This document shows, in pieces, positions 778 through 38,000 of a stretch of DNA of 39,758 bases (positions within the stretch are counted from its first letter, which is position 1; each line of letters opens with the position of its first letter). Location of the stretch: positions 1-39,758 of the forward strand of contig JAQGDQ010001465.1 of assembly GCA_030141605.1 (NCBI GenBank), read 5' to 3'. Both the position numbers and the translations under genes were made by a program. Under the pieces are notes generated by a model. It saw only the letters and a list, made by a program, of their open reading frames with translations, was not told the origin of the DNA and did not search any database. This DNA is from Tubiluchus corallicola. Lineage: Eukaryota > Animalia > Priapulida.

Positions 778-781
778 GAAG

Positions 782-791
782 CCCTCCCCCT
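782..791 (-). other. Polypurine tract
   Basis: Minus strand AGGGGGAGGG 4 nt before the TG of the 3' LTR. Confidence 0.85.
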
Positions 792-4700: not shown

Positions 4701-6619
4701 GCTTTTGCACGTGTAACTGCAAAACTATCAGAGATTTGTGCATCGCTAGACGATTTCAATTGTTCGTTGTCTGAGATTTCTGTATTATTATCAGCTGGGC
4801 CTTCATGAAGGTTTGATTCATCATTAGGTGTAAAAGGCCTCAGTGTTGATAAATAATCATTGCCCAATAAAAGTTCAGCTGGGAGGTCAGACATCACACT
4901 AACTGTAAGCCAACCAGCGAAGTTAGGACCTACAACTTTAATCTCTGCTGTACGACATGGCTCGACATGACCATGCACACATCTAACAGGTTTAGGGTCA
5001 GACTTCAGATACTGATCTTTACCAACAAAACGTGGGTGGATCATAGAAACTGTGGCACCACTGTCTCTTTGCCCCAAAACAGGAATGTCATTCACAAGAG
5101 CCTCAAACATAAACGGTATATTATTAACTGGAATGCCTTGAAGTTTATTAGAACTAGTGTATGTTGATTCGTGATCACAACTACCAAACAAAGTCTTAAC
5201 CGGAGTTTTATTTCTGCTGGTTTTGTTTGCCTTGTTAACAATATTAGTTGCATTTTGCCCATTGTTATTTTGGTGATTGTTCCGCTGTGATGCTTGGCAC
5301 TCTGGTCTTCTGTGACCAGGCTTACCACATTTATAACAAACTATCTTCTGTTTGTCATCAAGTTTATTATCAGAAACGTTTACTAAGGTATTGTTATTGT
5401 AAGGTTGTTTCTGAGAAAATTTTTCTGTTTTCCAAGGAGTAAAAGAGTGATTCCTAGAGTCAGTCTCCTTGGAGCTAATAAATTTGTCAGCCTCCATGGC
5501 CATTTCAAGACCATTCTCAAATTCGTGTCTTTTTAGCCATGTGCGGACATCAGATGTTAAATTATCCATAAACTGTTCCATAGCCATGGCTTCAAAAAGC
5601 TTGGAATAGGAATCAACAGCATTAATTGCTTCACAGAAATCGGTTAATGCACGAACCACTTTTAACCAATACTGATGACATGTTTCGTTGTGACCCTTAG
5701 TAAGAGCCCTAAAGCGTTTCCGGTAAGCATCTGTTGTTAAAATGTAAGCAGCTAAAAGAGACTTCCTTACATAAGAATAATCTTTAATATGCTCCTTAGG
5801 TATTTGCTGATATGCGTCAGCAGCTCGGCCAGATAAAGCAGGACCTAAAAGGGCAGACCAATTTGCCTCGGGAATATCATTAGATGTAGCACACGATTCA
5901 AACCAATTCAAATATCTCTGAATGTCATCAGACGATTCACGAAAACCTCGGACTTTCATTCTACTAGATGGGTTGGCAGGTACAACACAAGTATTTGTCA
6001 AAGCCGCACTTCTGTTTAAAAGTTCTAATTTCCTTAACTCAAATTCCATCTCTTCCTTGCGCATGCGCTCATCACGTTCACCTTGCTCTTTTTCATGCTG
6101 CAAAATGTCACGAACCAAATTGGGATTCATACCTTGAAGATTCTCAAGAGAAAACCCAGAAATACCACACAGTTTATCATTACCCCATCCACTGGAGGTA
6201 GGAATAACATTTTGTGGAGGTTTAAGAGCACCATCTTCAGTACCAACACCTTTTCCTGACTGAGAAATCTCCAGCCAAGTAGTAGAGAAAGGATCTTTTG
6301 GCTTAACACTTTGAAGAGGTGTACTAGCCTGGCTAATTTTGGAAGATTCTATAATTCGTTCAGCAACCGAACCAGGTGACTTAATTGATGTATCATGCAA
6401 TGTGTCAGTTTTATCAGAATTAATAAATGTTTTTCCCTGTAGAGGAACTTGTTGCATTTTAAGAATATGCTGTTGTGCTTTAATTATATGTTCAATTAAT
6501 TCTTGCTTACTGACATGGGTAACATCGACAAGTAAATGAAGTGTGCTTGCTACCCTGGAAAGTTCATCTTTTTTCATTTTATCTAACTGTGTCTTGTTGT
6601 AAATAGTTGCTTCAGCCAT
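1730..6619 (-). CDS. Gag-Pol polyprotein (capsid/SCAN-like, CCHC knuckle, aspartic protease, integrase, RT, RNase H)
   Basis: First ATG 6619 (MAEAT). Knuckle CYKCGKPGHRRPEC; protease RDSGATVS; IN HHCC (AHDNKMAGH..CRSCPSC), DDE (MDIIGP, TDRGTQF, VERYN) and WRGPYP; RT YIDD; RNase H TDAS..ELE..TD..ADALSR. Confidence 0.97.
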   Translation of the reverse strand: MAEATIYNKTQLDKMKKDELSRVASTLHLLVDVTHVSKQELIEHIIKAQQHILKMQQVPLQGKTFINSDKTDTLHDTSIKSPGSVAERIIESSKISQASTPLQSVKPKDPFSTTWLEISQSGKGVGTEDGALKPPQNVIPTSSGWGNDKLCGISGFSLENLQGMNPNLVRDILQHEKEQGERDERMRKEEMEFELRKLELLNRSAALTNTCVVPANPSSRMKVRGFRESSDDIQRYLNWFESCATSNDIPEANWSALLGPALSGRAADAYQQIPKEHIKDYSYVRKSLLAAYILTTDAYRKRFRALTKGHNETCHQYWLKVVRALTDFCEAINAVDSYSKLFEAMAMEQFMDNLTSDVRTWLKRHEFENGLEMAMEADKFISSKETDSRNHSFTPWKTEKFSQKQPYNNNTLVNVSDNKLDDKQKIVCYKCGKPGHRRPECQASQRNNHQNNNGQNATNIVNKANKTSRNKTPVKTLFGSCDHESTYTSSNKLQGIPVNNIPFMFEALVNDIPVLGQRDSGATVSMIHPRFVGKDQYLKSDPKPVRCVHGHVEPCRTAEIKVVGPNFAGWLTVSVMSDLPAELLLGNDYLSTLRPFTPNDESNLHEGPADNNTEISDNEQLKSSSDAQISDSFAVTRAKAAELQAKAVRDQELHKQLEHSTYSTQEHSNLNKFKQEQAQLITVSFEQLKQEQHNDPSLANYIDHATTFEIAEQNGKGYFLKDGMLYYLCKHTKAGKPRELLVLPKSRRRQVLEIAHDNKMAGHLGIRKTADRILMEYIWPKIKHAVRSYCRSCPSCQKNGRLQRGDRLPLRPLPIPKQPFFRIGMDIIGPLSRTPDGNKYALVIVDHATRYPDCYPIPNIETTTILNKLVEFCCRYGIPKEILTDRGTQFTSKLTHQLEEQLGVKGIYTSAYAPSTNGLVERYNSTLKASIRKLIQDHPHLPWDLAIPFVLFAYREVPQESTHYSPNELVFGYALRGPLAMLKERWGCEKLPELEDVDDYVSRIINTLDETLEDAHNSLRRAKLAQKSWFDRVSKQRSFNIGDKVLVQRMKKGSKMATTWRGPYPIVDKLSECTYRVKLGKPGSRRSLSTFHANRLKAYIDREEELVLMALHNEDRDDASVNWQEVEETCNKIGSGKTEACDLPEYAFFPTAVATQSVEDVELPDYLSEEAKEQMRKIFHSYPQMFTDLPGRTKLVQHYINLHDKTPVQQHSYRVPQARLDIIRKEVKDMLNLGVIRRSDSEYSSPMLVVPKPPMDGVSQWRPCVDYRALNKRTIFSPYPTPRPDDMIDDLHGAKWISTLDLSKAYWQIELAPESQPVSAFVTNFGKFEFTVMPFGLMNAAASAQSLIDRILDPVSYCSSGYIDDVIIKSPDWTNHLKHVDYTLYNIRKAGVTVKPKKCHFAQQEVEFLGYVVGKNRLKPQLSKVERIRQFLRPQTKTQVRRFLGTVSFYRRFIPHFSSIAAPLHALTEKYAPVQVEWTEATESSFRQLQDALSSESVLHSPDFTKPFYLTTDASFIGLGAVLSQDKGDGLAEVPVTYISRKLTQPETRYSVVELECLSVVFSVEKLRYYLEGRHFTVRTDQRSLLALDKMKTKNRRLCHWALKLSEYAFDIEHVPGCENRVADALSRL

Positions 6620-7266
6620 TCTGCATGAAAACACACAACTTATAGATCACTTTGATCACACTTGCGTGTATGTACACCAAAATATTATCAAACAGTCATG
6701 CATAATGTCAACCACCGCTTAAAAGGTCGCGCATAATTAATATTCGTACCAAAAGTATATTCTGCCTACTGTCAGTAGCATACGACTCGTATGTGTGCCG
6801 CACTCAAGAGAGCAGAAATACTTCAAGAAAAAGAACAATAGCGGGCGAGCTAAATTATGGGCACTCAACCACAACCTCAAGGAAAACTAAAAATGCTCTA
6901 CAAACAGTCTCAAAATTTTATAAGTATGGAACTACTACAAATTCCCTACACATAATTGCGAGCTGTAGGCTTTGCAATTACAGCAAACTTCTAAGCCAAT
7001 AAATCAAGAACATATTTGGACTGAAAAGATCAACAAAAGTGCCCTGTACAGTTAACGAAAGTAATAAATTTGGCTTCCTGGGTCTGTACGCAAAGCTCTA
7101 GTTTAACGCAACTATATAGCAAAATACTGTATTGTGCTATAAACAGGAAACGACTTCGAAACCTAAACAATTCACGTAAATACATTAAGCACAATTTTAG
7201 GCCACTCAGTCATAAAATCCAGTAACAACCAGTAAACAAACCGTTATCACCAAAAAACTACTGGTA

Positions 7267-7279
7267 ACTTCTGACACCA
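7267..7279 (-). other. Primer-binding site, tRNA-Leu type
   Basis: Minus strand TGGTGTCAGAAGT 2 nt after the 5' LTR; complementary to the tRNA-Leu(CAA) 3' end ACTTCTGACACCA. Confidence 0.85.
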
Positions 7280-7281
7280 AT

Positions 7282-8472
7282 TGTGACGACCACTGGCACC
7301 ATTTTGACTCTCTATGGTGTATTGTATAAAAGAATAAATAGTTTTGTCAGGAATGCAAAATAGGGGTTGTCTTTTACTTTATCCGAGCACGCCAGAGTTC
7401 ATCACATGTGGATAAAAACAATTTTTAATACTAATTTTTAAGGCAAGGGGTTTTTATCCAGACTTTTTTTAACGAGGGTCCTAGTAGTTTGATTAAAACT
7501 GATGCTATTTTAGGCCGTTATAATTTGTACTTAGAAATGACGAGGACGAACAGAAGGACAAACAAACGTTATTGCTTTTCTTATAAAAAAAACGTGCAAA
7601 AATTATTTAATGGTAATTTCAAAAATAATATTTTCTGTAAATTACTTATATACACACATATGATGAAAGAATTCAGTTAACCCCATCCCAGGTATAATAG
7701 GAAGAGAGGAGAGGATAATTACCAAAGAGTTCCATGGTCGCTGCAGCTGTACCAACAGGCTATCATCATGTCGTGATACCGTGGGTCCAGTTATCCAGGA
7801 TCACATCTCAAGAATCAAGAAACAACACCGGAACAGATTGCTGGGGCTCACGCATTGCAGACTCCACCACCAGAGTGTTAGAAACAAGGATCCAGGGTCT
7901 CGAAACGTCTCCGTTTACTCCTATACTGTAGGAGTCAGCAAATGACGGAGAAAAGGAGAAAAGTTCCTCGTTCTCAGTCTTCAGCTAGGCAACCTTCTTA
8001 GGCAGTTCCAAACTCCACCCAACAACCGTCATGATCTACGTGGCCAGATTACGAACACGACGAAGTTTCCTGCATACTAGTAACACTGCCAAGGAACCGT
8101 CTGGTTTCCTCTCAGAGAAATTTGATTACACTGAGAACACCAAAACTAACAAACTCATTATGAGATCTCAAAAGTTACGAGACCTCAAACCTGCTGCAAC
8201 AAAACGTGTAGCTTCAAAACGCAGCTCAAACCCGTAATGGCGGCAATAAGGAAAAATCACGGTTCAAAGCTTTTCCAGGAGCGCGAAAATTATCCATTAA
8301 CCATTCAAGACATGTGACAGGAAGCTCGCCATCAAACAGGGAAAAGGGGAGAGGTATTAAAGGATGGACAGAAAACCAACCCAAACATAAAACAGAAATG
8401 AATATTTTATTTGGAGTACAAAATGAACTTTAGCATAATTTTAATACGGACGAGGACGTCTGTGACGTCACA
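7282..8472 (-). repeat. 5' LTR, 1191 bp
   Basis: TGTGACG...CGTCACA inverted termini, next to PBS. Confidence 0.95.
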
Positions 8473-10111: not shown

Positions 10112-10182
10112 TGCATCGGCCGGGAATCGAACCCGGGCCGCCCGCGTGGCAGGCGAGCATTCTACCACTGAACCACCGATGC
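10112..10182 (-). tRNA. tRNA-Gly(GCC)
   Basis: GCATCGGTGGTTCAGTGGTAGAATGCTCGCCTGCCACGCGGGCGGCCCGGGTTCGATTCCCGGCCGATGCA; complete cloverleaf; T4 Pol III terminator immediately downstream. Confidence 0.97.
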
Positions 10183-13054: not shown

Positions 13055-13525
13055 GCACAGCTAGGGCATGCACCACTTACCACAGGTTTGACTATAAGCA
13101 CAGCTAGGACATGCACCACTTGCCACAGGTTTGACTATAAGCACAGCTAGGGCATGCACCACTTACCACTGGTTTGACTATAAGCACAGCTAGGGCATGC
13201 ACCACTTACCACAGGTTTGACTATAAGCACAGCTAGGGCATGCACCACTTACCACAGGTTTGACTATAAGCACAGCTAGGGCATGCACCACTTACCACAG
13301 GTTTGACTATAAGCACAGCTAGGGCATGCACCACTTACCACAGGTTTGACTATAAGCACAGCTAGGGCATGCACCACTTACCACAGGTTTGACTATAAGC
13401 ACGGCTAGGGCATGCACCACGTACCACAGGTTTGACTATAAGCACAGCTAGGACATGCACCACTTACCACAGGTTTGACTATAAGCACAGCTAGGGCATG
13501 CACCACTTACAGCAGGTTTGACTAT
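13055..13525. repeat. 43-bp minisatellite, ~11 copies
   Basis: Unit GCACAGCTAGGGCATGCACCACTTACCACAGGTTTGACTATAA. Confidence 0.97.
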
Positions 13526-17356: not shown

Positions 17357-17577
17357 CATTTTGATAGACGGGTATTTGTAAGACTTGGCATGAAATGACA
17401 ATGCGGGTTTTGGAATATCTATTTCAGAAAAGTTGACATTTTGATAGACGGGTATTTGTAAGACTTGGCATGAAATCACAATGCGGGTTTTTATAATATC
17501 TATTTCAGAAAAGCTGACATTTTGATAGACGGGTATTTGTAAGACTTGGCATGAAATCACAATGCGGGTTTTGGAAA
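17357..17577. repeat. 80-81-bp tandem repeat, ~2.7 copies
   Basis: CATTTTGATAGACGGGTATTTGTAAG.. at 17357, 17437 and 17518. Confidence 0.93.
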
Positions 17578-17619
17578 TCACTGTTGCTGGGATATGTAAT
17601 TAGTGTTGCTTGGACAATA

Positions 17620-18290
17620 ACCAGTATGTGTAGTAAACAGACTTCATTAAATTTATCCAGAAATAGATTGTAAGCTGCTTCAGGATCTGAGATACTATAT
17701 AATTCCTCCCAGTTGACTGATTCTATATCACTTATTAATTTATTTTTTACATGGTTATTGTATATTACTTTGTCGATATTATTAGTTTGAGATTTTGCTA
17801 TGTTTAAGTCGATGATTAAGAAAATTGGTAAGTGATCGGTGACATCTACTAAGAGATTGCCAGCTCTAAACTGATGCTGTATAACATTTGTCAGAATATT
17901 ATCAATTAATGTAGAGCTGTATGCTATAATTCGAGTAGGACAAGTAATAACTGGAAAGACATAGTTAGTAATAATAGTCTCAAGAAACTCTGCCGTGTCT
18001 TGATGCGAAGAGTGATTCAATAAGTTCAAATTGTAGTCCCCTAACAAAAATAACTGCTTATTTTGTTTATTTATTATTGATAGATTAGTAGCTAACTGAT
18101 CAATAAATGTTTGTGGGTTTTGCCCGGGGGGGGGGGGGGGTTCTGTAGATCACGCCGACTACTATGTTTTTGCCTTTTACTTTGTGAATTTCGATAAAAA
18201 TACTTTCAAGGTCAGAGTTATTTGATGTTAAGTCGTTTCTCACTACAAACAGGAATTGGTAAAAAATCATTTCTTACCTTATTTCTGTTC
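17620..18290 (-). pseudogene. Decayed LINE ORF2, AP-endonuclease domain (CR1/L2-group)
   Basis: LGDYNLNLL, PTRI..STLIDNILTN, TDHLPIF; broken upstream by a G-run and truncated downstream. Confidence 0.85.
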
Positions 18291-18333: not shown

Positions 18334-19241
18334 TCATTTAATCATGATGCCAGTACTCTGACTCGTTGATCTCCTAAGTTGAATCGGCACATCTGGCTTA
18401 GATGGTGTGACTGGTTTCCCGGGTTCATCAAGAGCATTACTCCTAAAAGGTGTAGAACTGCTCTTTGAAGATGAGGGTCCTTCATTGAACATCTCCGTGT
18501 ATGGTCCAGACAAGCGTTTCTCCTCACTAAAAGCAGATGAATCATCACAAAAACTTTTATGTAGATCATCCAAATTAAATACTCGAGTAATCTTGTTATT
18601 GTTATCCTTAATGAGAATCTTCCCATCCAACGTCCATACACCTTTGATTCTATTTTTATCGCGTAAATTTTGGGCTGCCCTCGCAACTTCCATATTAGGT
18701 CTGGTTAGGTCTTCATACACTTTGAGGGGAGGAAGTGGTTTTTTTGCTTTCCTACTTTCTCTCACCAAATTTTTTACTGCTAAGATCACATCTCGTTTGT
18801 AGTCATATCTAATGAATTTACACAAGATTGCTCTGTGTTTGCTTCCACTGCCCTTCCCAGTACGATGGCATCTTTCAATTGCGCTTTTATTAATGTGATC
18901 CAGCTTAAGATCTCCATTGCAGAAGTTCACTACTAAATCATGTACGTTCTTGTCATCATGTTCTGGCACATCGAAGAATCTAACGCTGCATCTCCTACTA
19001 TATTGTTCTAAGTCTTTTGTCGTAGTTGTTTAATTTCTCCACGCATCTCATTGACATCTTCTTTCACTTGCTTGATCGTAACTTTCGGAATTATTGAATT
19101 TATAACTAACGAGAGCGCATGCAGAATTTCTGGAGAGACTGTAGCGTTTCCTTGACTTTTGAGTTCATTTCTAAGTTATTAATTTCATTGACAATTTGCT
19201 CATCATCTATAATAGGCTTGTCTTCTTCAGCAGACGACATC
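18334..19241 (-). pseudogene. Decayed LINE ORF1 (RRM/CTD, Transposase_22-like) of the same element
   Basis: LEQYSRR, IERCHRTGK..RAILCKF, VYEDLT, WTLDGKILIK; 5' part frameshifted. Confidence 0.8.
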
Positions 19242-19963: not shown

Positions 19964-22900
19964 TTATACTAAAGTTTGTAAAAACGAATCACAAACTAAC
20001 TCAGAGAAAGCAACTAGCAGGTTTTTGTCTCGAGAGGTATAAATTTTACTAATGTTTTGAAATTGTAGGCTATTTGTGAGCGCTAATCTTTTATTTTCGT
20101 CGACCAAAGTACAATTAAAAAGCAAATGTTCAACTGTTTGTGCTTCCTCTGAGCATATACAGGCATTTTCGTGTATGTATCCAATTTTAAAAAGAAAATC
20201 TTAAAAGTTACCTTGCCCTAATAAAATACTACAAGATAGTTTTTCTAACCTTCTGCTATTTGTATGAAAAGGAAGGTCTAGTGGAGTTAAAAATACATTT
20301 TCAGGAAGAATAGACAACTCCTGGCATTGGTAGCGAGTACGGCATCTATTTTTCCATAGGTGTGTTATAAAATGCTCAATATCCTGTTTTTTGTACTCAA
20401 GGATATTCAGTGGTATACTACCGTAATCAATAGTACGTGAATTATAATTTTTACATAATTTTAAATATTGACCACTAGAAGCCAGTAATTCTCGAATGAA
20501 ATGTCTATGACCGATTGTGGGATCACGACTAATCTCTATTATATGACTTTTGACTAAATCTGAATCCGACATTGCTAGAGATTTTAGCATAAATTTTACT
20601 GTGATTCCCTTAAATATAATATCAAGTGGGGGTAGCCCACAAATTAACTCTAGTTTGTCTTTTGAGGGGTGAAAGTGACAACCAGTAGCAGTTTTCATAA
20701 CGTCATACAACAGATCGTCAAACAATGAGTGCTTTCTTACCATCCAGGCTGGAGCAGCATACATTATAATTGGTAAAACTAAAGTCTTAAATAGAGCAAT
20801 GATAACATTGAGACTGAAACCTTTATACAGCATGCTCTTACGCTTAATTGACATCCACCTATTCCAAGCTTGTCTTCTAACCTTACTTACGTGATTTTCA
20901 AATGACAAATTACTGTCGATTGTAACTCCTAAAACTTTACTACTTTGCACGTAACTAACATCATTGGTTCCAAATTTTAAGCAGTCGTTTAAATCATGAA
21001 GGCCAAATGGAATTACTTCAGTTTTTCCTTGCGAGCAATTTATTATCTGCCGCCATTTAAAACACCAATTATAGAGTTTATCACAACACAGCTGACTAGT
21101 TCTAAGCGTTTCATTTTCGGAAGAACAAGCTACAAGTATTGTTCCGTCATCTGCATATTTAAAATTATCAGTATTTGATATTGCTAAGATTTCGTCAAAC
21201 ATGTCGGACACATAAAAATTAAATAGCACCGGGGAGATGACTGACCCCTGTGGCAGACCTATCTTACAACAGTATTCCTGAGAAGTATAGTTATTGACCT
21301 TGATGCGCACATTCCTTTCATATAGAAAAGTCTTAATAAGACCCAGAATTCTACCTTTAAAGCCGGCCTCATATAGCTTAAACAGTAGACCATCCAACCA
21401 GACGCTGTCAAAAGCGCGCTGGAAATCACAGCAGATAGACAGACAGACATCATTTTGTAGTAAATGCTGTTGAATATTTGATATTAAGCGAATCAAATAG
21501 CGACCGGTATTGCGACCTGCCATGAAACCTTCCTGCACTTCGTCTATCAGATCATTTTCAAACATGTAAGTTCTCAATCGATTTGACAGTAAACGTTCAG
21601 CAAATTTGCCAAAATAGGATGAGAGCGTCAGGGGTCGAAAGCTACCAGGATCCGTATAATTTGTTTTGCCTTCCTTTTTAATGAATATTACATTGGATTC
21701 ACGCCAAACCCACTCGCTTTTACTTAAACAAAGATTACACAAGTATAGAAAAACGGCCTTGGCCCAGAAGCCAAGGTGTTTAACCATCAGTGGATGAAAG
21801 CCATCGTAGTCGGTGCTTTTGCCCTGCGTGACTGTTTCTTTTATTGCAATGTTTAGTTCATCCATTGTAAAGTTACCGTTTATAGCAAGGGGCACCATGC
21901 CTCTATAATCATAGCGAGAAACTTCCCCCTCTACTTGCTGCTGCCAAAAATAATCGAAATTTGCACCGTTTACGTGATCTCCACTTAAAAAATTTTTGTA
22001 TAGTACCTCACAAATATCTTGATTTTCGCTATATATGTTTCCTTCATATTTTAGCATGCCGATATCTGAATTTGCTCTACCAGTAAATATTTTCTTATAT
22101 TCTCTCCAGAATGCATTACTTTTACGAACATTTAAGTTGACACACTTTTTACAAAGCCAGTTATCAGCAGCTGTGCGAAGTTCTTCATCAAACTTAGTCT
22201 CTTCTTCAAGATACCGGTTCCTATTGTGAATATTAGAATGCTTTAGATAGATTTTTCTCAACCTTCGTACATTGTTTGACAAAAGAACTTAAGTTTTGAG
22301 TCCAAAACGGTTTTGAGTGATTACATATAACTTTCTTTGGTAGTACAGCTTCATTGCTGTTTTTTATTAATTTCTGAAACAACTGCCACAGCTCAATAGG
22401 GTCCTCTCGCATTATAGCATCGTTAAGGAGCGCAAAATTAGAGCGCAAACTATTTTCTAAATAACCTGACCAGCTATGCCAGTTACTGCTTTTGAAATCG
22501 AAGACAGTACGCTTTGCTGTTGTGCTACAGTTATGGAAAGATGCACCTAACTTAGTAATGACTGGAAAGTGGCCCATTAACGGAGCTCCACTAAACAATT
22601 CAACCTCGTCGTCAACGCTTTGTGTCACCGGTAATGACGCAAGATTGTTTGTTAGCAATACAATATCAATGATGCTTTTGCCGTGGGCTGATTTAAATGT
22701 TTCAACCAACGGTGCAACAGGCAGTACTGGATATGTGCTAGACCAAACAAAGTCATTTAAAAGTTGCCCATGTGAGTTAGTTTTTACATCCCACATAAAA
22801 CTTCTACTATTCAGATCTCCAGTTAACATAACACCGTCTAGGCTTTGTTGATCAGAAAATAGGCAGGCCTTTTTGAAAGAAGCTAGCATTGATTGCATGT

Positions 22901-23255
22901 GCTCGACTTTGTTTGGCAGAACATATACAGAAGCTACAATCATTTTCAAACCTTTGCCTTTAACTAAAACCCAAATTGTATCTGTGTTGTTATCTTCTAA
23001 TTCGTGTAGTCTGCAACTAATCAATCCATTTTTTACGAATACTGCACATCCACTTGTATTTGGGTCCTTATTTTTGACATAACTTTGATAATTAGTTAGA
23101 GTCACATCATCGTATTGTTTAGCTTTCACTTCCTGTACTGTAACAATATCAAAGTAGTAGGAGTTTACATATTTGTCTAACGCATATTGTGAACGAACAG
23201 AAAAAGTATTGATATTAATTTGGCATACACTGAGACACCTAGAAGATGCAGCCAT
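19964..23255 (-). pseudogene. LINE ORF2 (APE-RT-CCHC) with one frameshift (~22283) and one in-frame stop (20201-20203)
   Basis: CQININT, VTVQEV, GDLNS, SIIDI; FRPLTL, DFQRAFDSV, GLPQGSVISP, YADD; CICSEEAQTVEHLLFNC in frame after the TAA. Confidence 0.92.
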
Positions 23256-23410
23256 TAGATACGGTTAAGTCTTTTTAACTGATCTAAGTATGTAGAGCAA
23301 TTCTTGGAATTGGCTTCGTGCTCACTTTTGCAATTGTAGCGCTTTATCTCTTTTCTGTTGCATTCAGATGTTTTATGCAGATTTCCGCATTTACCACAGT
23401 TGGCTTTTAT
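23255..23410 (-). pseudogene. LINE ORF1 C-terminal zinc knuckles
   Basis: CGKCGNLHKTSEC..YNCKSEHEANSKNC; stop overlaps the ORF2 start (TAATG). Confidence 0.85.
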
Positions 23411-24242: not shown

Positions 24243-24966
24243 AACACCTCCTTCAGTGTCCATTTTTACTGTTTCCTCTAATCTTTTCTTATACCTTTGT
24301 ATCTCTTCTCTTTCGTTTGCCACCTTCCTCTGCAAATCTCCTGTTTCTAACTCTTGGCTTTCTGCAATCTCTTCCAGTTCCTGCTGGTTGGGAAGGAAGG
24401 GAAGGAGGGATTTTTGAAGAGGGTGCGGGGCTTTTTTCAGAAAATGATACAGCAACATTTTTTAAACACAAAACTGCCTTGTGTAACGTCTCGGCAACAT
24501 TTGTAACTTTGTTAGAAACTTTATAGAACATTTAACATAAATCTTTCTTGCTTATTAATCTGTTGATTCACAAGGACTGCTGCAATGATAAGTCTAGAGA
24601 ATGTAACGCCTCGTGGCTTGCCCGCTAAAAACAGTGAGGGGAAACCTTAGTGAGCACAAACAATAAAATATAAACCATAGATAAGAACACGTCACAGGTT
24701 TTGCAGTTTTTATTAAGATTACTCATGGAGTGCTAAGTTTAGAAATACTAACACCTCCTTCAGTGTCCATTTGTACTGTTTCCTCTAATCTTTTCTTATA
24801 CATTTGTATCTCTTCTCTTTCGTTTGCCACCTTCCTCTGCAAATCTCCTGTTTCTAACTCTTGGCTTTCTGCAATATCTGGTTGGGAAGGAAGGATTTTT
24901 GAAGAGGGTGCGGGGCTTTTTTCAGAAAATGATACAGCATCATTTTTTAAACACAAAACTGCCTTG
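24243..24966. repeat. ~220-240-bp direct duplication (24243-24481, 24750-24966)
   Basis: Shared AACACCTCCTTCAGTGTCC...AAACTGCCTTG with indels. Confidence 0.9.
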
Positions 24967-27057: not shown

Positions 27058-27501
27058 TGTTTGGGCTTTCAAAACCAAATTTTAAGCTAGATTACATTTT
27101 GCTCTTTCTTCCTTCTTTATTTACCAAAACGTATCATTCCATCTAAACAAAACCGTAAACAAATGACAAAAAATAAATAACACTAGCCAAAAGTCAATTT
27201 TACATAATTCAGAGTTTCACACTGCACCGTCGCATTAATCAATAAATAGCTGTTATCAAATAGTAAATTTAAATTTTATAAAGTAATTTGAGTATATACG
27301 TACGTTATTAGCCCCAAATCATAAGCAATTGCAACAGATAACGACAACATTTAATCAACCCACCATGACACGTCCTCACTTCACACGCCTCTGACACCGA
27401 TCAAACTGATCACGTGTCCAGGCCAAAAAATCACCACAAGGTGGCCAAAGCCAACAGCAAGTGGAGGCCGCAAAGCACGCCAATGCCAGATTTCCAGTAC
27501 A
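27058..27501. repeat. ~444-bp interspersed repeat, copy 1
   Basis: Close direct match to 35238-35680. Confidence 0.93.
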
Positions 27502-27628
27502 TAGCCTGTTTGGGATCTCTTTATCAACTTGAGACATGTTCAATCAATGGTCTGTGACTGGCCTGTGTGGGTTCTCTTGTCTAAAACTTGATTTATCAGA
27601 GGTATGCTCTGCGCCTGGTCTGTTTGGG

Positions 27629-27756
27629 CAGGGTCGGCCTTAGGTAATTGAAGGCCCTAGGCGAAGTGAATTTGGTGGCCCCAAATGAAATAGAAAAATA
27701 AAAAATAAGTTATTAGTTGTTACCTGCAGTCGTAAGAAAATAAGATAAGATGATCC
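27629..27756. mobile_element. hAT-like MITE terminus abutting the viral insert
   Basis: CAGGGTCGGCCTTAGG..GGCCCTAGGC start typical of GC-rich hAT MITEs; partner end not found. Confidence 0.4.
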
Positions 27757-28137
27757 GTTTATCTCCGCTCGGTTAGAGGCACCGAGAGCTAGAGCTGCAG
27801 TTGCTTCGGCAATGGCTGCTGTAGACATGATTAATCCTAAAAACCTTTTCTTTCTGGGAGTGTAATTGGACGAGTTCTGGTTGCCCTTGTCCTCGAACAA
27901 ATTGTAACGCACATTCCAGGCTTTCGTCATTTCTATCCTGACTACTTTAAATGATTGAGCGACTTGATAACCCAGAGGTTTGGGATCTGTAATGATGATC
28001 CCATAAGTTGCTAACACATCCTGGTGTTTATATATAATGTCCTGCGACACCTGTGGTATTATGCTCTTAACACTGATGATAGTTTCTTGGCTTGAAGAAA
28101 GCAAACTCAAAAAGAGAAGAACCTTATAATACTCCAT
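27757..28137 (-). pseudogene. F-like copy 5, 3'-truncated after ..SNRAEIN and reading into flank (stop at 27640)
   Basis: Identity to the other copies ends at 27757. Confidence 0.9.
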
Positions 28138-28170
28138 TTTGACTTCATTTTTTTTTTTTTTTTTTTTTTT

Positions 28171-28872
28171 TTAAAAATTTTTTTTAAAATAAGGACTATG
28201 GCGAGTGCTGTCTGCTGTTGTATTCGACTTTCTGACATGCGTTATCGGCTCAACAAATCTCCGTGCTGAGAATACCTTATACCTTATAGAATTAAGATAG
28301 TCGTGCAACCTGAGCATATCAGTAGCATGTGCTACCATTAAGCTATGTACTTCATCATTTATACCTCCAACTATCCTTTCTAGCTTCTCTAGATCGTGTC
28401 CCAATATTCCGATCTCCTTATTCACGATCTGCACTTCATGTTCGATGATCCCTTGGTTTTGTCGTAGTTCGCTCATTTTAGAGTTCAGTGAGTTTATCTC
28501 CGCTCGGTTAGAGGCACCGAGAGCTAGAGCTGCAGTTGCTTCGGCAATGGCTGCTGTAGACATGATTAATCCTAAAAACCTTTTCTTTCTGGGAGTGTAA
28601 TTGGACGAGTTCTGGTTGCCCTTGTCCTCGAACAAATTGTAACGCACATTCCAGGCTTTCGTCATTTCTATCCTGACTACTTTAAATGATTGAGCGACTT
28701 GATAACCCAGAGGTTTGGGATCTGTAATGATGATCCCATAAGTTGCTAACACATCCTGGTGTTTATATATAATGTCCTGCGACACCTGTGGTATTATGCT
28801 CTTAACACTGATGATAGTTTCTTGGCTTGAAGAAAGCAAACTCAAAAAGAGAAGAACCTTATAATACTCCAT
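28171..28872 (-). CDS. F-like fusion glycoprotein copy 4, 233 aa, no TM
   Basis: Signal peptide, RKKR/FLGLIMSTAAIAEATAALALG, heptad repeat, sequons NSS/NYT/NTT; ends KKNF-TAA. Confidence 0.8.
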   Translation of the reverse strand: MEYYKVLLFLSLLSSSQETIISVKSIIPQVSQDIIYKHQDVLATYGIIITDPKPLGYQVAQSFKVVRIEMTKAWNVRYNLFEDKGNQNSSNYTPRKKRFLGLIMSTAAIAEATAALALGASNRAEINSLNSKMSELRQNQGIIEHEVQIVNKEIGILGHDLEKLERIVGGINDEVHSLMVAHATDMLRLHDYLNSIRYKVFSARRFVEPITHVRKSNTTADSTRHSPYFKKNF

Positions 28873-28879
28873 TTTGACT

Positions 28880-28880
28880 T

Positions 28881-28928
<48 letters not shown>

Positions 28929-29617
28929 TTAAAATAAGGACTATGGCGAGTGCTGTCTGCTGTTGTATTCGACTTTCTGACATGCGTTATCGGCTCAACA
29001 AATCTCCGTGCTGAGAATACCTTATACCTTATAGAATTAAGATAGTCGTGCAACCTGAGCATATCAGTAGCATGTGCTACCATTAAGCTATGTACTTCAT
29101 CATTTATACCTCCAACTATCCTTTCTAGCTTCTCTAGATCGTGTCCCAATATTCCGATCTCCTTATTCACGATCTGCACTTCATGTTCGATGATCCCTTG
29201 GTTTTGTCGTAGTTCGCTCATTTTAGAGTTCAGTGAGTTTATCTCCGCTCGGTTAGAGGCACCGAGAGCTAGAGCTGCAGTTGCTTCGGCAATGGCTGCT
29301 GTAGACATGATTAATCCTAAAAACCTTTTCTTTCTGGGAGTGTAATTGGACGAGTTCTGGTTGCCCTTGTCCTCGAACAAATTGTAACGCACATTCCAGG
29401 CTTTCGTCATTTCTATCCTGACTACTTTAAATGATTGAGCGACTTGATAACCCAGAGGTTTGGGATCTGTAATGATGATCCCATAAGTTGCTAACACATC
29501 CTGGTGTTTATATATAATGTCCTGCGACACCTGTGGTATTATGCTCTTAACACTGATGATAGTTTCTTGGCTTGAAGAAAGCAAACTCAAAAAGAGAAGA
29601 ACCTTATAATACTCCAT
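28880..29617 (-). CDS. F-like copy 3, 245 aa with poly-Lys tail
   Basis: Same sequence; reads through poly(A) to the junction TGA. Confidence 0.75.
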
Positions 29618-29624
29618 TTTGACT

Positions 29625-30344
29625 TCATTTTTTTTTTTTTTTTTTTAAATTTTTTTTAAAATAAGGACTATGGCGAGTGCTGTCTGCTGTTGTATTCGAC
29701 TTTCTGACATGCGTTATCGGCTCAACAAATCTCCGTGCTGAGAATACCTTATACCTTATAGAATTAAGATAGTCGTGCAACCTGAGCATATCAGTAGCAT
29801 GTGCTACCATTAAGCTATGTACTTCATCATTTATACCTCCAACTATCCTTTCTAGCTTCTCTAGATCGTGTCCCAATATTCCGATCTCCTTATTCACGAT
29901 CTGCACTTCATGTTCGATGATCCCTTGGTTTTGTCGTAGTTCGCTCATTTTAGAGTTCAGTGAGTTTATCTCCGCTCGGTTAGAGGCACCGAGAGCTAGA
30001 GCTGCAGTTGCTTCGGCAATGGCTGCTGTAGACATGATTAATCCTAAAAACCTTTTCTTTCTGGGAGTGTAATTGGACGAGTTCTGGTTGCCCTTGTCCT
30101 CGAACAAATTGTAACGCACATTCCAGGCTTTCGTCATTTCTATCCTGACTACTTTAAATGATTGAGCGACTTGATAACCCAGAGGTTTGGGATCTGTAAT
30201 GATGATCCCATAAGTTGCTAACACATCCTGGTGTTTATATATAATGTCCTGCGACACCTGTGGTATTATGCTCTTAACACTGATGATAGTTTCTTGGCTT
30301 GAAGAAAGCAAACTCAAAAAGAGAAGAACCTTATAATACTCCAT
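29625..30344 (-). CDS. F-like copy 2
   Basis: Same sequence; ATG at 30344. Confidence 0.75.
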   Translation of the reverse strand: MEYYKVLLFLSLLSSSQETIISVKSIIPQVSQDIIYKHQDVLATYGIIITDPKPLGYQVAQSFKVVRIEMTKAWNVRYNLFEDKGNQNSSNYTPRKKRFLGLIMSTAAIAEATAALALGASNRAEINSLNSKMSELRQNQGIIEHEVQIVNKEIGILGHDLEKLERIVGGINDEVHSLMVAHATDMLRLHDYLNSIRYKVFSARRFVEPITHVRKSNTTADSTRHSPYFKKNLKKKKKK

Positions 30345-30354
30345 TTTGACTTCA

Positions 30355-30385
<31 letters not shown>

Positions 30386-31067
30386 AAGGACTATGGCGAG
30401 TGCTGTCTGCTGTTGTATTCGACTTTCTGACATGCGTTATCGGCTCAACAAATCTCCGTGCTGAGAATACCTTATACCTTATAGAATTAAGATAGTCGTG
30501 CAACCTGAGCATATCAGTAGCATGTGCTACCATTAAGCTATGTACTTCATCATTTATACCTCCAACTATCCTTTCTAGCTTCTCTAGATCGTGTCCCAAT
30601 ATTCCGATCTCCTTATTCACGATCTGCACTTCATGTTCGATGATCCCTTGGTTTTGTCGTAGTTCGCTCATTTTAGAGTTCAGTGAGTTTATCTCCGCTC
30701 GGTTAGAGGCACCGAGAGCTAGAGCTGCAGTTGCTTCGGCAATGGCTGCTGTAGACATGATTAATCCTAAAAACCTTTTCTTTCTGGGAGTGTAATTGGA
30801 CGAGTTCTGGTTGCCCTTGTCCTCGAACAAATTGTAACGCACATTCCAGGCTTTCGTCATTTCTATCCTGACTACTTTAAATGATTGAGCGACTTGATAA
30901 CCCAGAGGTTTGGGATCTGTAATGATGATCCCATAAGTTGCTAACACATCCTGGTGTTTATATATAATGTCCTGCGACACCTGTGGTATTATGCTCTTAA
31001 CACTGATGATAGTTTCTTGGCTTGAAGAAAGCAAACTCAAAAAGAGAAGAACCTTATAATACTCCAT
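30355..31067 (-). CDS. F-like copy 1, no stop, in frame with copy 2 (480-aa fused ORF)
   Basis: ATG spacing 723 nt = 241 codons. Confidence 0.72.
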
Positions 31068-31075
31068 TTTGACTT

Positions 31076-31114
<39 letters not shown>

Positions 31115-31151
31115 TAGTATTATTAGTGTTAGTGTAAGATAGTTATACTGC

Positions 31152-32045
31152 TTACGGAATTCCAAGTGAAGCACCACTTACTACTTGTGAGTCAGGTGGT
31201 AGTCCGGATCGGATGGAACTTTTGTGAGATGGCAGAGAAATTAAGCGTTGAGACGGGTTGCCAGAGAAATGAGACAACTGACTACCTAGCTCTTCCATAG
31301 TAGAAGATAATTGTTTCATGTGTAAGCATATGTCGTTGATATCTTCTTCAATTTTTATTATTCTCTTTCCAAAATCTTGCTGCATCTGATTGATGTTATT
31401 ATTAGCTTGATTAATTTTCTCAATCATTTCATCTTTACAATTACCAATTAGTTTTGTCATACTCTTCATGATTATTTCTAATTTTTCAGAGCTATCAGGA
31501 AAAGTGGGGGATAGTTCTCTGGGGTTAAGCACAGGAATTTCTTTATCAAGAGTTGAGAGGTCTGCTCGGTGTTCTCTAGCCTTTGGGATAGGGTAAGCTT
31601 TTGGTACTGCTCCTGTCTCTAAAGTCTGTGTTGGTTGATCAGGTTTATCTGAAATGATAGTTACAACTTTATTGTGTGTTTGAGGCGTTATAGGTCTTAA
31701 ACTGCTCTTAGGAAGATCTCCACAAATTGGAAGACTTTGTTCCTCTTTATAATGCAGTTTCGGTAAATCTGGTATATCTATCCAGTTTGGATTTCTTGCC
31801 TTTTCTCTTTTTTGAGTCTCATAGCTAATAAAGCTCAGGAGCCTGGTGGAAAATGGACCACTTCTAGGGTCTACTTGGCTCAACTGTTTTTCAAGAGATT
31901 CTATCTTCATGAGTCTGACAAGACCTGCTTCTTCTAAAAGATGGGTGATTGTTTTTTTGATACCATCTCGATTGAGAGTCTTCTTCATTACATCAATATT
32001 TCTTAGGCCCTTGAGAATCTTTGTAGCACATTCAAGCTGGTCCAT
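31152..32045 (-). CDS. Putative viral phosphoprotein (P-like), 297 aa
   Basis: N-terminal amphipathic helix MDQLE..KGLRNIDVMK, Pro/Ser/Thr-rich middle, C-proximal coiled coil; own gene-start, 3' UTR and A33. Confidence 0.6.
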   Translation of the reverse strand: MDQLECATKILKGLRNIDVMKKTLNRDGIKKTITHLLEEAGLVRLMKIESLEKQLSQVDPRSGPFSTRLLSFISYETQKREKARNPNWIDIPDLPKLHYKEEQSLPICGDLPKSSLRPITPQTHNKVVTIISDKPDQPTQTLETGAVPKAYPIPKAREHRADLSTLDKEIPVLNPRELSPTFPDSSEKLEIIMKSMTKLIGNCKDEMIEKINQANNNINQMQQDFGKRIIKIEEDINDICLHMKQLSSTMEELGSQLSHFSGNPSQRLISLPSHKSSIRSGLPPDSQVVSGASLGIP

Positions 32046-32068
32046 GTTGACTTCGATTTTTTTAGATA
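32042..32068 (-). promoter_or_regulatory. Viral gene-end / intergenic / gene-start junction
   Basis: TATCT AAAAAAA TC GAAGTCAAC ATGG; the start motif recurs before every F copy. Confidence 0.75.
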
Positions 32069-32076
32069 AAACTATC

Positions 32077-32544
32077 TCAACTCAATATTAGGTTATTGAT
32101 GCTCTTTAGAAGAGTGGTTCCGTTTTGAATCTGAACCAAAAATTGAGGCCAGACTAGATTGTTTTCCTTTCTTCGATTCACATTTCCGCAATAAGGTGTC
32201 TGTTCACTAGTGCTTTTTGTTGGCAAGGTTTCTCCTTGAAGTTTAGAAAACGCCAGTTGTAACTTTTCCAAACACTCTCGCAAAATTTTGAGCTCAAACA
32301 TTATATCATTATTTGTGGTTTGTGTTTCCCTTTCATTTGTTTTTTCTTGCAGTTGGGGGTAAATAGATGAAGAAGTAGCTCTGTAAAGTGGAGCTGATGG
32401 TATTATATAATTTCTAATACATATTTCTGGATTTCTCCAATGATAAATAATATTTTTCTCGCCTTCTTTAAATAGTGAAAAATTAAGTCCACAGGGACAA
32501 GGAGCATGGTTGATGACAGGGCCACTCGGGCAGTCTGTTGTCAT
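32077..32544 (-). CDS. Unknown viral ORF X (155 aa from ATG; may be 5'-truncated) with late-domain motifs
   Basis: PSAP and YPQL motifs, short coiled coil; followed by TATCT-A7 gene end. Confidence 0.55.
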   Translation of the reverse strand: MTTDCPSGPVINHAPCPCGLNFSLFKEGEKNIIYHWRNPEICIRNYIIPSAPLYRATSSSIYPQLQEKTNERETQTTNNDIMFELKILRECLEKLQLAFSKLQGETLPTKSTSEQTPYCGNVNRRKENNLVWPQFLVQIQNGTTLLKSINNLILS

Positions 32545-32568
32545 ATGGATTTTGAAATATTCCAAATA

Positions 32569-32691
32569 GCTTACCGAACAGAATAGAATAGAGCAAAGCC
32601 TGAAGTGTGAACAGAGCTGCAATGAAAGACACGACCACTGACAAGGGTCTACAGCAGACCTTCCCTTTTTATAAGCTCAGGTGTGCACGTG
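32569..32691 (-). promoter_or_regulatory. Putative Pol II core promoter plus 5' exon and splice donor
   Basis: CACGTG (32686-91), CACCTG, TATAAAAA (32673-66), TCAGT initiator (32641-37), G/GTAAGC at 32574. Confidence 0.45.
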
Positions 32692-33419
32692 ACTAGTGGC
32701 TCCCACTAACACAAGGTCAGAATAAGAGTCTATGTGGTAGATAAAGCCACGTTCACACGCACACCTGAGCAGTCTGCTGTATTCCCCTGCCAGTATTACA
32801 CTATCTCATCACAGCCCTGCAGTACAATATTATTACTTTTACACATCATTCTTACAACATTCATACTGCTTGTCCCCAGGCCTACACATAAATTTGAGTA
32901 CATTTTTGTAAAGGACGAGCAGCAAGACGCTTACTTCATTCAGCGAGGCGAACACAACTTTATTGATTATTTATTTTATTGATTATTTACTAGTTGCAAC
33001 AGCAATACTTGAAAAAATCTTTCCAAAAACAACGTCAGAATGGGAAATAATGTTGGTGGAAATGACACCCGCAGTGCGATAGAGAGCTTATGTAATACGA
33101 GATAGTGATGCTATTGAACAATCTTTGGACTTAAACTTAATAAACATGAAATAACAAACTTAAACTTTTCTCTGCCTCGAGGAACTGAAAAAAACGAACG
33201 ATGAATTTTTTGTTACCGCTTCGCCTCCGCTTTAGTTTCTGAGATTTACGGGAACAATTTTTTAATTGTCTGTATATAAAAAAGACAATAGATAGGTATA
33301 AAAACAATAAAAAGTTCAGTTAGGAGCCGTTAGAACATTTTTGCCATACTGCAACGGAGCCGTTAGAACGTTTTTGCCATACTTCAACTTTCTGACTGGT
33401 ACAATAGCAGTTATTATTA

Positions 33420-34507: not shown

Positions 34508-35060
34508 CAGTGGTTCCCAACCTTTTCCTTGCCAAGTACCCCTTCTAAATTAATATTATCGACATTTTTTTATTTTAACTTTTCTTGAAAACATGAATTT
34601 TATCACTGATTATTAAGAAATACGTAATTTGAACAACTTTCTCGAATATGAAAACATCAATACAAGGAAACGTGATCTCCACAGCAGTCATAATTAATGC
34701 ACACGCTGTTCTTGATGATTGTCAACAAGTTTTTTGATATCAGGTTTAATTGTTGATATTGCGACTCGCATGTCGCTCCTCAAATCCAAACGATTTCTTG
34801 CCTTCGTCTTCAAATGTAGCATTGCACTGAAGCCTAGCTCACATTTGTATGTTGTCACAAATGGAACCAACACCTCGAAAGCCGCAATTTTCAGTCCATT
34901 GAAGTCTGCACCTAGCTGTGCCCAGAACTTCTCTAGTGACGTGGTCTTGAACTTCATCTTCTCAACTTCACATGCTTGCAATTCAATCAGAAGTTCTTTG
35001 CTCGCATCGTCATCTGGCGGTTCATCAATGTCAAAAGCAAAAGGATGACGAATCCACTTT
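34508..35060 (-). mobile_element. hAT Buster/Charlie 3' fragment with transposase dimerisation domain
   Basis: WIRHPF..FW..PFVTTYKCELGFS..KTKARNRL..DMRVAIS; TIR CAGTGGTTCCCAACC preceded by TTCTAGAG (NTCTAGAN target). Confidence 0.9.
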
Positions 35061-35237
35061 AGAATCCAATTAGTATAAAACCAACTTCTGGGTCAAGTTA
35101 TCGTAGACATATGTGGGCACCAACGATTAAAAGAGGCTTTCCACCTTTGCACTATATTGTAGTGCTATAGTGCCCTATGCTATATTATTATTTATGCTTG
35201 GTTTTTCGAGTCTTGTGAACATTTTTATAATAGCATA

Positions 35238-35680
35238 TGTTTGGGCTTTCAAAACCAAATTTGAAGCTAGGGTAATTCTGCTCTTTCTTCTTTCTTTATT
35301 TACCAAAACATATCATTCCATCTAAACAAAACCATAAACAAATGACAAAAAATAAATAACACTAGCCAAAAGTCAATTTTACATAATTCAGAGTTTCACA
35401 CTGCACCGTCGCATTAATCAATAAATAGCTGTTATCAAATAGTAAATTTAAATTTTATAAAGTAATTTGAGTATATTCGTACGTTTTTAGCCCTAAATCA
35501 TAAGCAATTGCAACAGATAACGACAACATTTAATCAACCCACCATTAAACGTCCTCATTTCACACGCCTCTGACACCGATCAAACTGATCACGTGTCCAG
35601 GCCAAAAAATCACCACAAGGTGGCCAAAGCCAACAACAAGTGGAGGCCGCAAAGCACGCCAATGCCTGGTTTCCAGTACA
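35238..35680. repeat. ~443-bp interspersed repeat, copy 2
   Basis: Close direct match to 27058-27501. Confidence 0.93.
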
Positions 35681-36087: not shown

Positions 36088-36221
36088 TATTTATAACAAT
36101 TGCATTTGCATGGCATGTATTTATAACAGTTGCATTTACATGGCATCCATTTATAACAATTGCATTTACATGGCATCCATTTATAACAATTGCATTTACA
36201 TGCCATCTATTTATAACAATT
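36088..36221. repeat. 30-bp minisatellite, ~4.5 copies
   Basis: ATTTATAACAATTGCATTTACATGGCATCC. Confidence 0.92.
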
Positions 36222-36679
36222 GGCACCAGCTACCTTTACTGGAAGAGATCTTAGCAGCCTGCACTATTGATACCATTATTATGTCATGGGGCAGGCCAGC
36301 TTTCTGACTCATTTTACTGATCTGTGGCCCATTGAACCCGCACGTGAGCTGTGGCCCATTGAACCCATACAGTAATTATATTCTACAAATAAGAAATGAG
36401 TTTTTTTTTCATTTCCTCCTTATTTTTTCCATCTAAAATACATACGAGTATAAATAAATTACATTTGACTCAACTTTTTGTTAAACAGTATGTTTACCAT
36501 TGAGAACTACCCATTGAGACAACAGATGAAAATTAGTGTTGCAGTGTAAAATCCTAGAGAATTTTCGTATAGCTTTGCTATTTCTGTCGCTGTTCTGTTT
36601 ATCATTATTGTGGCTACGTCTGTGCATTAAAATGTGCACATTCCCATTACGTATATCCGTTTTGATACTCTCTCTCTAA

Positions 36680-37107
36680 GTGTGTCTCGGCGTGCCCTCG
36701 CGGCGGGTGTGTCTCGGCTTACCCTCGCAGCGGGTGTGTCTCGGCTTGCCCTCGCAGCGGGTGTGTCTCGGCTTGCCCTCGCAGCGGGTGTGTCTCGGCT
36801 TGCCCTCACAGCGGGTGTGTCTCGGCTTGCCCTCACAGCGGGTGTGTCTCGGCTTGCCCTCACAGCGGGTGTGTCTCGGTTTACCCTCACAGCGGGTGTG
36901 TCTCGGCTTGCCCTCACAGCGGGTGTGTCTCGGCTTGCCCTCGCACCTGTTGTGTCTCGGCTTTCCCTCACAGCGGGTGTGTCTCGGCTTACCCTCACAG
37001 CGGGTGTGTCTCGGCTTGCCCTTGCGGCGGGTGTGTCTCGGCTTGCCCTCGCGGCGGGTGTGTCTCGGCTTGCCCTCGCAGCGGGTGTGTCTCGGCTTGC
37101 CCTCACA
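36680..37107. repeat. 27-bp GC-rich minisatellite, ~16 copies
   Basis: GGGTGTGTCTCGGCTTGCCCTCGCAGC. Confidence 0.96.
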
Positions 37108-37281
37108 CCGGGCTGTGGTTCATCAACTATCAGTCCGATCCCAGCAGGGTGGACAGCGGGGTCCCTCTCTGCTTCTGGATCGTTTGCATCTGAGCAGTCA
37201 GAGACTGTCCCTCTCAACTTCTGCTGCCATTTTAGCGGCGGTGTAGTGGGCGGATTTCCAAATTTTACATGTACCTCATAT

Positions 37282-37540: not shown

Positions 37541-37594
37541 CTGTGACGACTCTCTACCACCGCTCGCTTGATCTGTTTCTTCAGCTACTCTGTT

Positions 37595-38000
37595 GGAACA
37601 ATGCCTGTAATGGTAGTAGGTGCTCTGGTGGAACAATGCCTGTAATGGTAGCAGGTGCTCTGGTGGAACAATGCCTGTAATGGCAGCAGGTGCTCTGGTA
37701 GAACAATGCCTGTAATGGTAGCAGGTACTCTGGTGGAACAATGCCTGTAATGGTAGCAGGTACTCTGGTGGAACAATGCCTGTAATGGCAGCAGGTGCTC
37801 TGGTAGAACAATGCCTGTAATGGTAGTAGGTGCTCTGGTGGAACAATGCCTGTAATGGTAGCAGGTGCTCTGGTGGAACAATGCCTGTAATGGCAGCAGG
37901 TGCTCTGGTAGAACAATGCCTGTAATGGTAGCAGGTACTCTGGTGGAACAATGCCTGTAATGGTAGCAGGTACTCTGGTGGAACAATGCCTGTAGTGGTG
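37595..38000. repeat. 35-bp minisatellite, ~11.5 copies
   Basis: GGAACAATGCCTGTAATGGTAGCAGGTGCTCTGGT. Confidence 0.97.

Follow-up and report, generated by a model that had tools for sequence, protein, structure and literature searches.

A head-to-tail array of probable RNA-virus mRNA copies in a contig of the priapulid Tubiluchus corallicola

Endogenous viral elements (EVEs) that are very young, and that still display the chemistry of their own junctions, are rare. Contig JAQGDQ010001465.1 of the priapulid Tubiluchus corallicola, analysed over its whole length of 39,758 nt (hereafter the window, in which all positions are given), carries an insert that likely consists of DNA copies of mRNAs from an undescribed negative-strand RNA virus. 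The insert holds 4.5 identical units resembling the paramyxovirus fusion gene (F), arranged head to tail via poly(A) tracts, plus a P-like gene and a gene that we call X. The explanation we lean towards, by a modest measure, is that the reverse transcriptase (RT) of a host retroelement copied viral mRNAs, that the F repeats came from re-copying one template and not from separate mRNAs, and that the copying also switched to an X–P transcript.

On the plus strand, which corresponds to the cDNA, the motif GACTTC ends at 28146, 28881, 29626, 30353 and 31076, and is followed each time by one A and then by T25, T37, T19, T27 and T33, respectively. The initial annotation had placed these five junctions, together with a start in the middle of F at 27757, and was exact on both. 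The five tracts are the only runs of T or A of at least 12 in the window. They had been described as oligo(T), but the tails are not simple homopolymers, since junctions 1–3 additionally contain A/T8 interruptions; in the same way, the array between 27757 and 31110 is as described, but the insert runs on to a right limit at about 32555, covering the P-like gene, a native gene junction and a 155-aa open reading frame (ORF). The positions of all these features are collected in Table 1.

Comparison of the four full F bodies, each of 692 nt, revealed 0 mismatches in 6/6 pairwise alignments, and the partial copy matches 390 nt of the unit from its gene-start end, with the insert beginning exactly at 27757. 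The full gene-start motif GAAGTCAA(A/C)AT occurs six times in the window, every time within the insert. Viral gene-start and gene-end signals bound the units, and the tails of A19–A37 exceed the native templated A7, as is characteristic of mRNA-derived non-retroviral EVEs. At 5/5 junctions, copying reached the gene start of the template, and the adjoining sequence is the A tail of the next one. The viral insert is very young.

Table 1. Features of the insert and its borders (window positions; junction sequences read on the plus strand).
Feature	Position	Strand	Remarks
Left junction	27749..27756	+	8 nt immediately preceding the insert match an F-unit 8-mer located 40 nt ahead of the breakpoint
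Partial F-like copy	27757..28146	-	5′ 390 nt of the unit from the gene start; cDNA starts mid-gene
Junction 1, A-T25-A5-T8-A4	28147..28189	+	
F-like copy 1, 692 nt	28190..28881	-	ORF 28171-28872, 233 aa; stop codon lies within the tail
Junction 2, A-T37-A3-T8-A4	28882..28934	+	
F-like copy 2, body identical	28935..29626	-	ORF continues into the tail as poly-Lys
Junction 3, A-T19-A3-T8-A4	29627..29661	+	
F-like copy 3, body identical	29662..30353	-	
Junction 4, A-T27-A3	30354..30384	+	no A8 interruption; mRNA-sense TTATTT-An resembles the native gene end TTATCT-A7
F-like copy 4, body identical	30385..31076	-	in frame via the tail into copy 3: 480-aa fused ORF 29625-31067
Junction 5, A-T33, then A3 of the P unit	31077..31110	+	F gene start to the poly(A) of the P-like unit
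P-like transcription unit	31111..32054	-	gene start GAAGTCAACATG; ORF 31152-32045; gene end TACTTT-An (A33)
Native-looking gene junction	32049..32069	-	gene end TTATCT-A7, intergenic TC, gene start GAAGTC; read-through or antigenome-sense copy
Upstream gene X	32064..32555	-	ORF 32077-32544, 155 aa, 6 Cys; TCAAAAT at 32555-32549
Right flank	32556..32800	-	high-copy host repeat; bin depth 117962 in run X1; TATAAAA at 32673

Since a virus does not place F after F, the F–F junctions were made by the host or arose after integration. For at least one join, that of the F 5′ end to the P poly(A), a template switch by the RT is the best reading. LINE-1 has been documented to capture viral read-through mRNAs together with their start signals, stop signals and poly(A) (PMC10288550). 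In the present case, copying would have begun inside a short polyadenylated F-like RNA. The F template and its junction would then have been copied again, either because the RT rolled round an RNA that was circular or used repeatedly, or through later tandem duplication mediated by the poly(A) tracts, with slippage altering the homopolymer lengths. At a T run, the cDNA would have switched to the poly(A) of an X–P read-through mRNA and been extended nearly to its gene start, after which it would have been joined to the chromosome without a target-site duplication (TSD). The inherited insert would finally have been rearranged and amplified differently in another sample, a step that the read data partly show.

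The evidence for re-copying lies chiefly in what the junctions share. An A8-T3/T5 interruption (in mRNA sense) is common to 3/4 F tails, and a single, identical base occupies 5/5 junctions. Re-copying of one template accounts for the junction base and the odd tail that the units have in common; for a circular RNA, it also accounts for the mid-gene start without a tail, which is what would be expected of a template lacking a usable 3′ end. Furthermore, four successive picks of F have a probability of f^4 = 0.0016 at f = 0.2, and these odds make a repeated choice of F from the poly(A) pool of the cell improbable; in cells infected with parainfluenza virus 5 (PIV5), all viral mRNA was reported to make up only 1.5–8.2% of poly(A) reads (PMC6694822). 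The initial annotation had proposed serial RT jumping over several complete viral mRNAs. What survives of this proposal is the cDNA running from gene start to poly(A) of viral transcripts, with at least one template switch, but its five independent templates now appear doubtful, and completeness has to be given up, as the F unit encodes a 233-aa N-terminal piece only. The alternatives it had mentioned, rolling re-copying and tandem duplication, suit the F–F repeats better in view of the shared A8, the f^4 odds and the mid-gene breakpoints seen in a second sample (run X2, below).

Read data were compared through contigs only, and their depth is not equal to copy number. Runs X1 and X3 represent one sample, and X2 represents another sample from another study, which might not be genomic DNA. 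In X1, the F contigs have a depth of 6279, P/X of 265.7 and the flank contigs of 140–187; the corresponding values in X3 are 93–95, 11.4 and 6–7.6. Collapse of the array to one copy in raw reads, which the annotation had named as the outcome that would speak against it, was not what we found: the array stays, with F contigs 8x and 24x deeper than P/X, and the true number of F units may exceed the 4.5 assembled copies. A single X1 contig of 1500 nt (depth 265.7) extends from P across X as far as 32584, some 30 nt beyond the right junction as inferred here, and thus joins the insert to host chromosomal DNA in DNA read data. Among the contigs listed, none spans the array or the left junction.

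The second sample displays a different arrangement. Here, the P contig (depth 109.7) has 0 differences in 875 nt, an F 3′ contig (depth 189.7) has 1 difference in 327 nt, and an F 5′ contig, 27819–28136 (depth 903.9), has 0 differences in 318 nt. One contig passes from X at 32153 into F at 30452, with 6 extra letters between them, a joint in the middle of the gene. In four bins, the listed contigs reproduce the bin means of X2 exactly, and two others independently imply an unlisted P-3′ contig, 31141–31308, at a depth of 911. The simplest reading would be a segment composed of P-3′, poly(A) and F-5′ with mid-gene ends, amplified about 8-fold relative to the remainder of P. The insert would therefore have been amplified independently of mRNA ends. 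Run X5, which carries the same species label and comes from another sample, has no cover over the insert, and X2 has none over 32180–32513; such coverage holes prove nothing, and polymorphism of the insert among samples is only suggested.

Several observations weigh against the explanation we favour. Tandem duplication at a later stage, by way of the A tracts, would leave the same pattern as re-copying, and the favoured explanation covers RT rolling and DNA-level duplication alike. The four F tails fall into three architectures (A8-T5, A8-T3 twice, and none) and all differ in length, as independent molecules would too. The difference between T3 and T5 is hard to obtain by DNA slippage while the bodies carry no substitution, and the zero mismatches among the bodies do not discriminate among the models. 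Within one sample, the F:P depth ratio is 24x in X1 and 8x in X3, a threefold disparity; GATC sites number 6 in the 692 nt of the F unit versus 3 in 1474 nt, a difference that could introduce a bias if X1 is a proximity-ligation library. As for X2, the P-3′ contig and its link to F-5′ rest on bin arithmetic and equal depths, and no listed joint displays them. Finally, no RT has been identified and no TSD found, and neither the Gypsy element nor the LINE of the window has been tied to the insert.

Two other accounts of the junctions have to be weighed. One is a series of end-to-end jumps across six separate viral mRNA molecules in a single RT event, the constant A being an untemplated +1 A; we regard it as unlikely. 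In its favour, every template was copied to its gene start, the tails vary in length and architecture, and R2-type RTs are reported to jump end-to-end serially in vitro, with dATP giving maximal untemplated addition (PMC8594491, PMC8857657). The same reports describe jumping as most efficient when a +1/+2 overhang can pair with the 3′ end of the acceptor, and as suppressed by high dATP. The A of the cDNA mismatches a 3′-A acceptor, on which the +1 overhang would stand unpaired, and would pair only with a tail ending in 3′-U. Uridylated short tails might provide this 3′-terminal U and would also account for the runs of U within the tails; on cellular L1 mRNAs, short oligo(A) tails carrying about 3 U are described (PMC6191937). 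On the other hand, serial jumping requires four F picks in a row with no host or other viral mRNA between them, leaves the identical A8 of three tails to be accounted for, and cannot yield the mid-gene-bounded amplification inferred in X2. Uridylation of RNA also serves as an antiviral measure. It is a doubtful, more elaborate version of the same idea that six separate viral mRNAs were strung together in vivo, with the +1 A selecting tails marked by antiviral uridylation, and left a tape-like record in the germline that has since become an expanding, individual-specific tandem repeat beside a promoter-like host element. The second account dispenses with RT jumps. In the virus, P and F would be neighbours separated by a single intergenic U, retroposition would have acted on a read-through transcript containing an intervening poly(A), and A-tract slippage or unequal exchange would have multiplied F; we consider this distinctly unlikely. 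Intervening poly(A) has reportedly been seen in in-vitro work on vesicular stomatitis virus (VSV), and a title search of the literature returned no example. The native X–P junction likewise has a T directly after its A run (A7-TC-GAAGTC), and the P-3′ and F-5′ contigs of X2 are nearly equal in depth (911 vs 904). Read-through mRNAs are reported to be common, with intergenic lengths that vary in some paramyxoviruses and in respiratory syncytial virus (RSV) (PMC6694822, PMC9648745), and in some bornaviruses P is described as directly followed by the glycoprotein gene (PMC5834213). However, two unlike events would be needed in one transcript, a clean A7 and another with 33 A, and the intergenic base differs from that of the X–P junction (T vs TC).

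Two further possibilities concern the reality and the viral nature of the insert. That viral cDNA or an amplification chimera was assembled into a host contig, with its copy number inflated, is very improbable. Long homopolymers are indeed error-prone, and among the contigs listed the array and the left junction go uncrossed, but F is 8–24x deeper than P in two runs, the 1500-nt contig crosses the inferred right junction at a depth of the same order as that of the flanks, and the same sequence is present in a sample of another study. We give the least credence, close to none, to the view that the F-like unit stems from a host retroelement, as an env-type mRNA, and not from a negative-strand virus. 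It could draw on the second cluster of the protein atlas search, whose members are mostly eukaryotic and in 15% of cases carry Baculo_F, and on the window being without viral N or L. Against it stand the gene-end/intergenic/gene-start junction and the start motif common to F, P and probably X, which bespeak stop–start transcription, and the lack of any sequence match to the Gypsy element of the window.

Read on the minus strand, the elements of the X–P part of the insert follow in the order ORF X, TTATCT-A7, TC, GAAGTCAACATG, P-like ORF, TACTTT-A33, T, and then GAAGTCAAAATG, which opens F. A gene-end/intergenic/gene-start pattern is described as the stop–start signature of non-segmented negative-strand viruses (PMC6694822). 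The P-like ORF encodes 297 aa with a Pro-rich middle and a C-terminal coiled coil; the labels P and X are provisional and follow from position and features only. The short motif TCAA[AC]AT occurs 29 times over both strands of the window, six of these at the F and P gene starts. TCAAAAT, the last seven letters of the start motif, lies at the inferred right junction and is suggestive of a gene-start remnant of X; as this remnant sits where the P/X contig of X1 implies the onset of the host repeat, the X–P unit is likely a read-through mRNA copied almost to its gene start. Searches returned no homologue of P (0/1337) and no longer form of X (0/296). For P, the protein atlas gave nothing at 0.9, and the nearest family cluster, BDV P24 at 0.79, is a lead only. 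No viral N or L gene lies within the window.

The F unit product has a signal-like hydrophobic N-terminus, an RKKR/FLGL cleavage site, a fusion-peptide-like segment and a long helix, and in this basic layout it is like the paramyxovirus F0 (PF00523), to which its similarity is weak. Paramyxovirus F0 comprises a full ectodomain, a C-terminal transmembrane (TM) anchor and the Cys residues of the F2–F1 disulfide. The present product, by contrast, has 233 aa versus about 490–520 aa in the matched PDB chains, with 0 Cys, no C-terminal TM anchor and only two hydrophobic windows (at residues 6 and 100), and so it is not a complete F gene. It is an N-terminal F-like piece that may end either at the virus’s own gene end or through early termination of the transcript. 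Pfam Fusion_gly matched at E 0.0026 and 16.6 bits, below the cut-off of 29.8. A PDB search gave 6 matches at E 0.25–0.97, of which 5/6 were fusion-glycoprotein chains (the F chains at E 0.25–0.65), and the protein atlas ranked an F0 cluster first at 0.95, with low recognition, ahead of the second cluster at 0.93. The support for an F-like identity is weak but consistent.

A single-sequence fold of the F unit placed a helix at 94–207, with a predicted local distance difference test (pLDDT) score above 70 at about residues 121–200, an overall pLDDT of 60 and a predicted template-modelling (pTM) score of 0.31; Foldseek with this low-confidence fold gave 0/174 matches at E≤0.001, which is uninformative. 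No longer form of F was found among 3826 candidates, and a viral contig search returned none for F or P. Against 1.84 billion representatives, the sole match of F was a 2716-aa protein, aligned in 13 stretches and best over the coiled-coil part, which was judged a chance match. A metagenome match (1/50 stretches), with 48 residues aligned to a GC-rich bacterial-type locus, was likewise attributed to chance.

The insert resembles both EBL-type mRNA capture, including its read-through units, and tandem EVE arrays, and it lacks the marks of canonical target-primed reverse transcription (TPRT). Endogenous bornavirus-like elements (EBLs) derived from N/X/P read-through and X/P mRNAs are described as cDNA in which, as here, the signals for transcription start and termination persist along with a read-through junction and poly(A) (PMC10288550). 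The EBLs described there are single, old and flanked by TSDs, whereas the present insert has no TSD and a tail-less mid-gene start. Unlike EBLs, it also fuses two different transcripts at poly(A) and repeats one unit 4.5 times with zero divergence, and the virus behind it has an F-like protein of class I, with no relatives detected in the searches made. Tandem duplication of non-retroviral EVEs after integration has been documented for totivirus-derived STORM, where adjacent RNA-virus gene copies are ascribed to this process (PMC13756089); STORM is reported as at least 15 My old, diverged and domesticated, whereas the present copies are undiverged, and their limits fall precisely at the gene start and the poly(A). 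With the serial template jumping of R2-type RTs in vitro (PMC8594491, PMC8857657), the insert has in common that templates copied in full are linked end to end and that the base at the joins looks untemplated. Unlike that system, the +1 A here mismatches a 3′-A acceptor and would fit only a tail with a terminal U, no R2 or other RT is tied to the locus, and the repeats come from one template species. Circular RNA-derived pseudogenes, as reported, likewise show a non-colinear 3′-to-5′ junction of one RNA and mostly no poly(A) at the insertion end, there with LTR-rich flanks (PMC4897178). They stem from back-spliced host exons, whereas a poly(A)-to-gene-start junction of viral RNA is repeated here, and a circular F RNA is only hypothesized.

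A search of titles and abstract openings, with most subscription papers outside its coverage and supplements excluded, found no report of a head-to-tail viral mRNA array joined by poly(A). The insert preserves intact signals for transcription start and stop from an unsampled virus whose fusion piece is paramyxovirus-like, as well as a poly(A)-to-gene-start join between two viral transcripts, and its amplified forms differ between two samples. These properties open two questions to testing: by which route (RT jumping, circular RNA or duplication at the DNA level) the cDNA of an RNA virus is joined and multiplied when an EVE is born, and whether such arrays contribute to small-RNA immunity.

At the borders of the insert, no poly(A) or poly(T) tract stands at the left junction where the cDNA starts, and comparison of 27601–27770 with 32201–33300 revealed only scattered 7–8-mers and no TSD at the junctions; both findings depart from canonical TPRT by a LINE. 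The 8-mer match at the left junction has a chance probability of 0.0065 (within ±100 nt, either strand) and hints at a templated insertion. In the right flank, the TATAAAA element points into the insert, oriented to transcribe X–P–F in the mRNA sense, and could on sequence grounds drive its expression. The flank gives the impression of a long terminal repeat (LTR), and a link to the LTRs of the window Gypsy element was rejected, as these have no match to it. A 444-nt direct repeat, 96% identical, flanks the insert at 27058–27501 and 35238–35680; by depth, it is a dispersed host repeat and not a TSD.

The host likely possesses recently active RTs, given that the window holds a Gypsy element with identical LTRs and a LINE with endonuclease and RT. 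The Gypsy-type LTR retrotransposon occupies 1–8472, with 777-nt terminal repeats (1–777 and 7696–8472) that are 100% identical, so that it is likely recent. Its single open frame at 1730–6646 (minus strand, 1638 aa) comprises SCAN, zinc knuckle, protease, integrase, RT and RNase H, the integrase preceding the RT, and we take the element to be of the Gmr1 type. The LINE at 20201–23264 (minus strand) has two overlapping frames, for endonuclease (22233–23264) and RT (20201–22288); a possible ORF1-like frame at 18334–19029 and another LINE-like fragment at 17505–18149 lie near it.

Elsewhere in the window, minisatellites are found at 13055–13525, 36680–37117, 37588–37999, 36088–36222 and 17357–17576, with periods of 43, 27, 35, 30 and 81 nt, respectively. 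The sole Rfam match is a tRNA at 10112–10182 (minus strand), far from the insert, and a C-terminal fragment of a hAT transposase (Dimer_Tnp_hAT, E 0.00037) lies at 34694–35092 (minus strand). A stretch of about 230 nt is present in two copies, 89% identical and about 500 nt apart, at 24243–24481 and 24750–24966.

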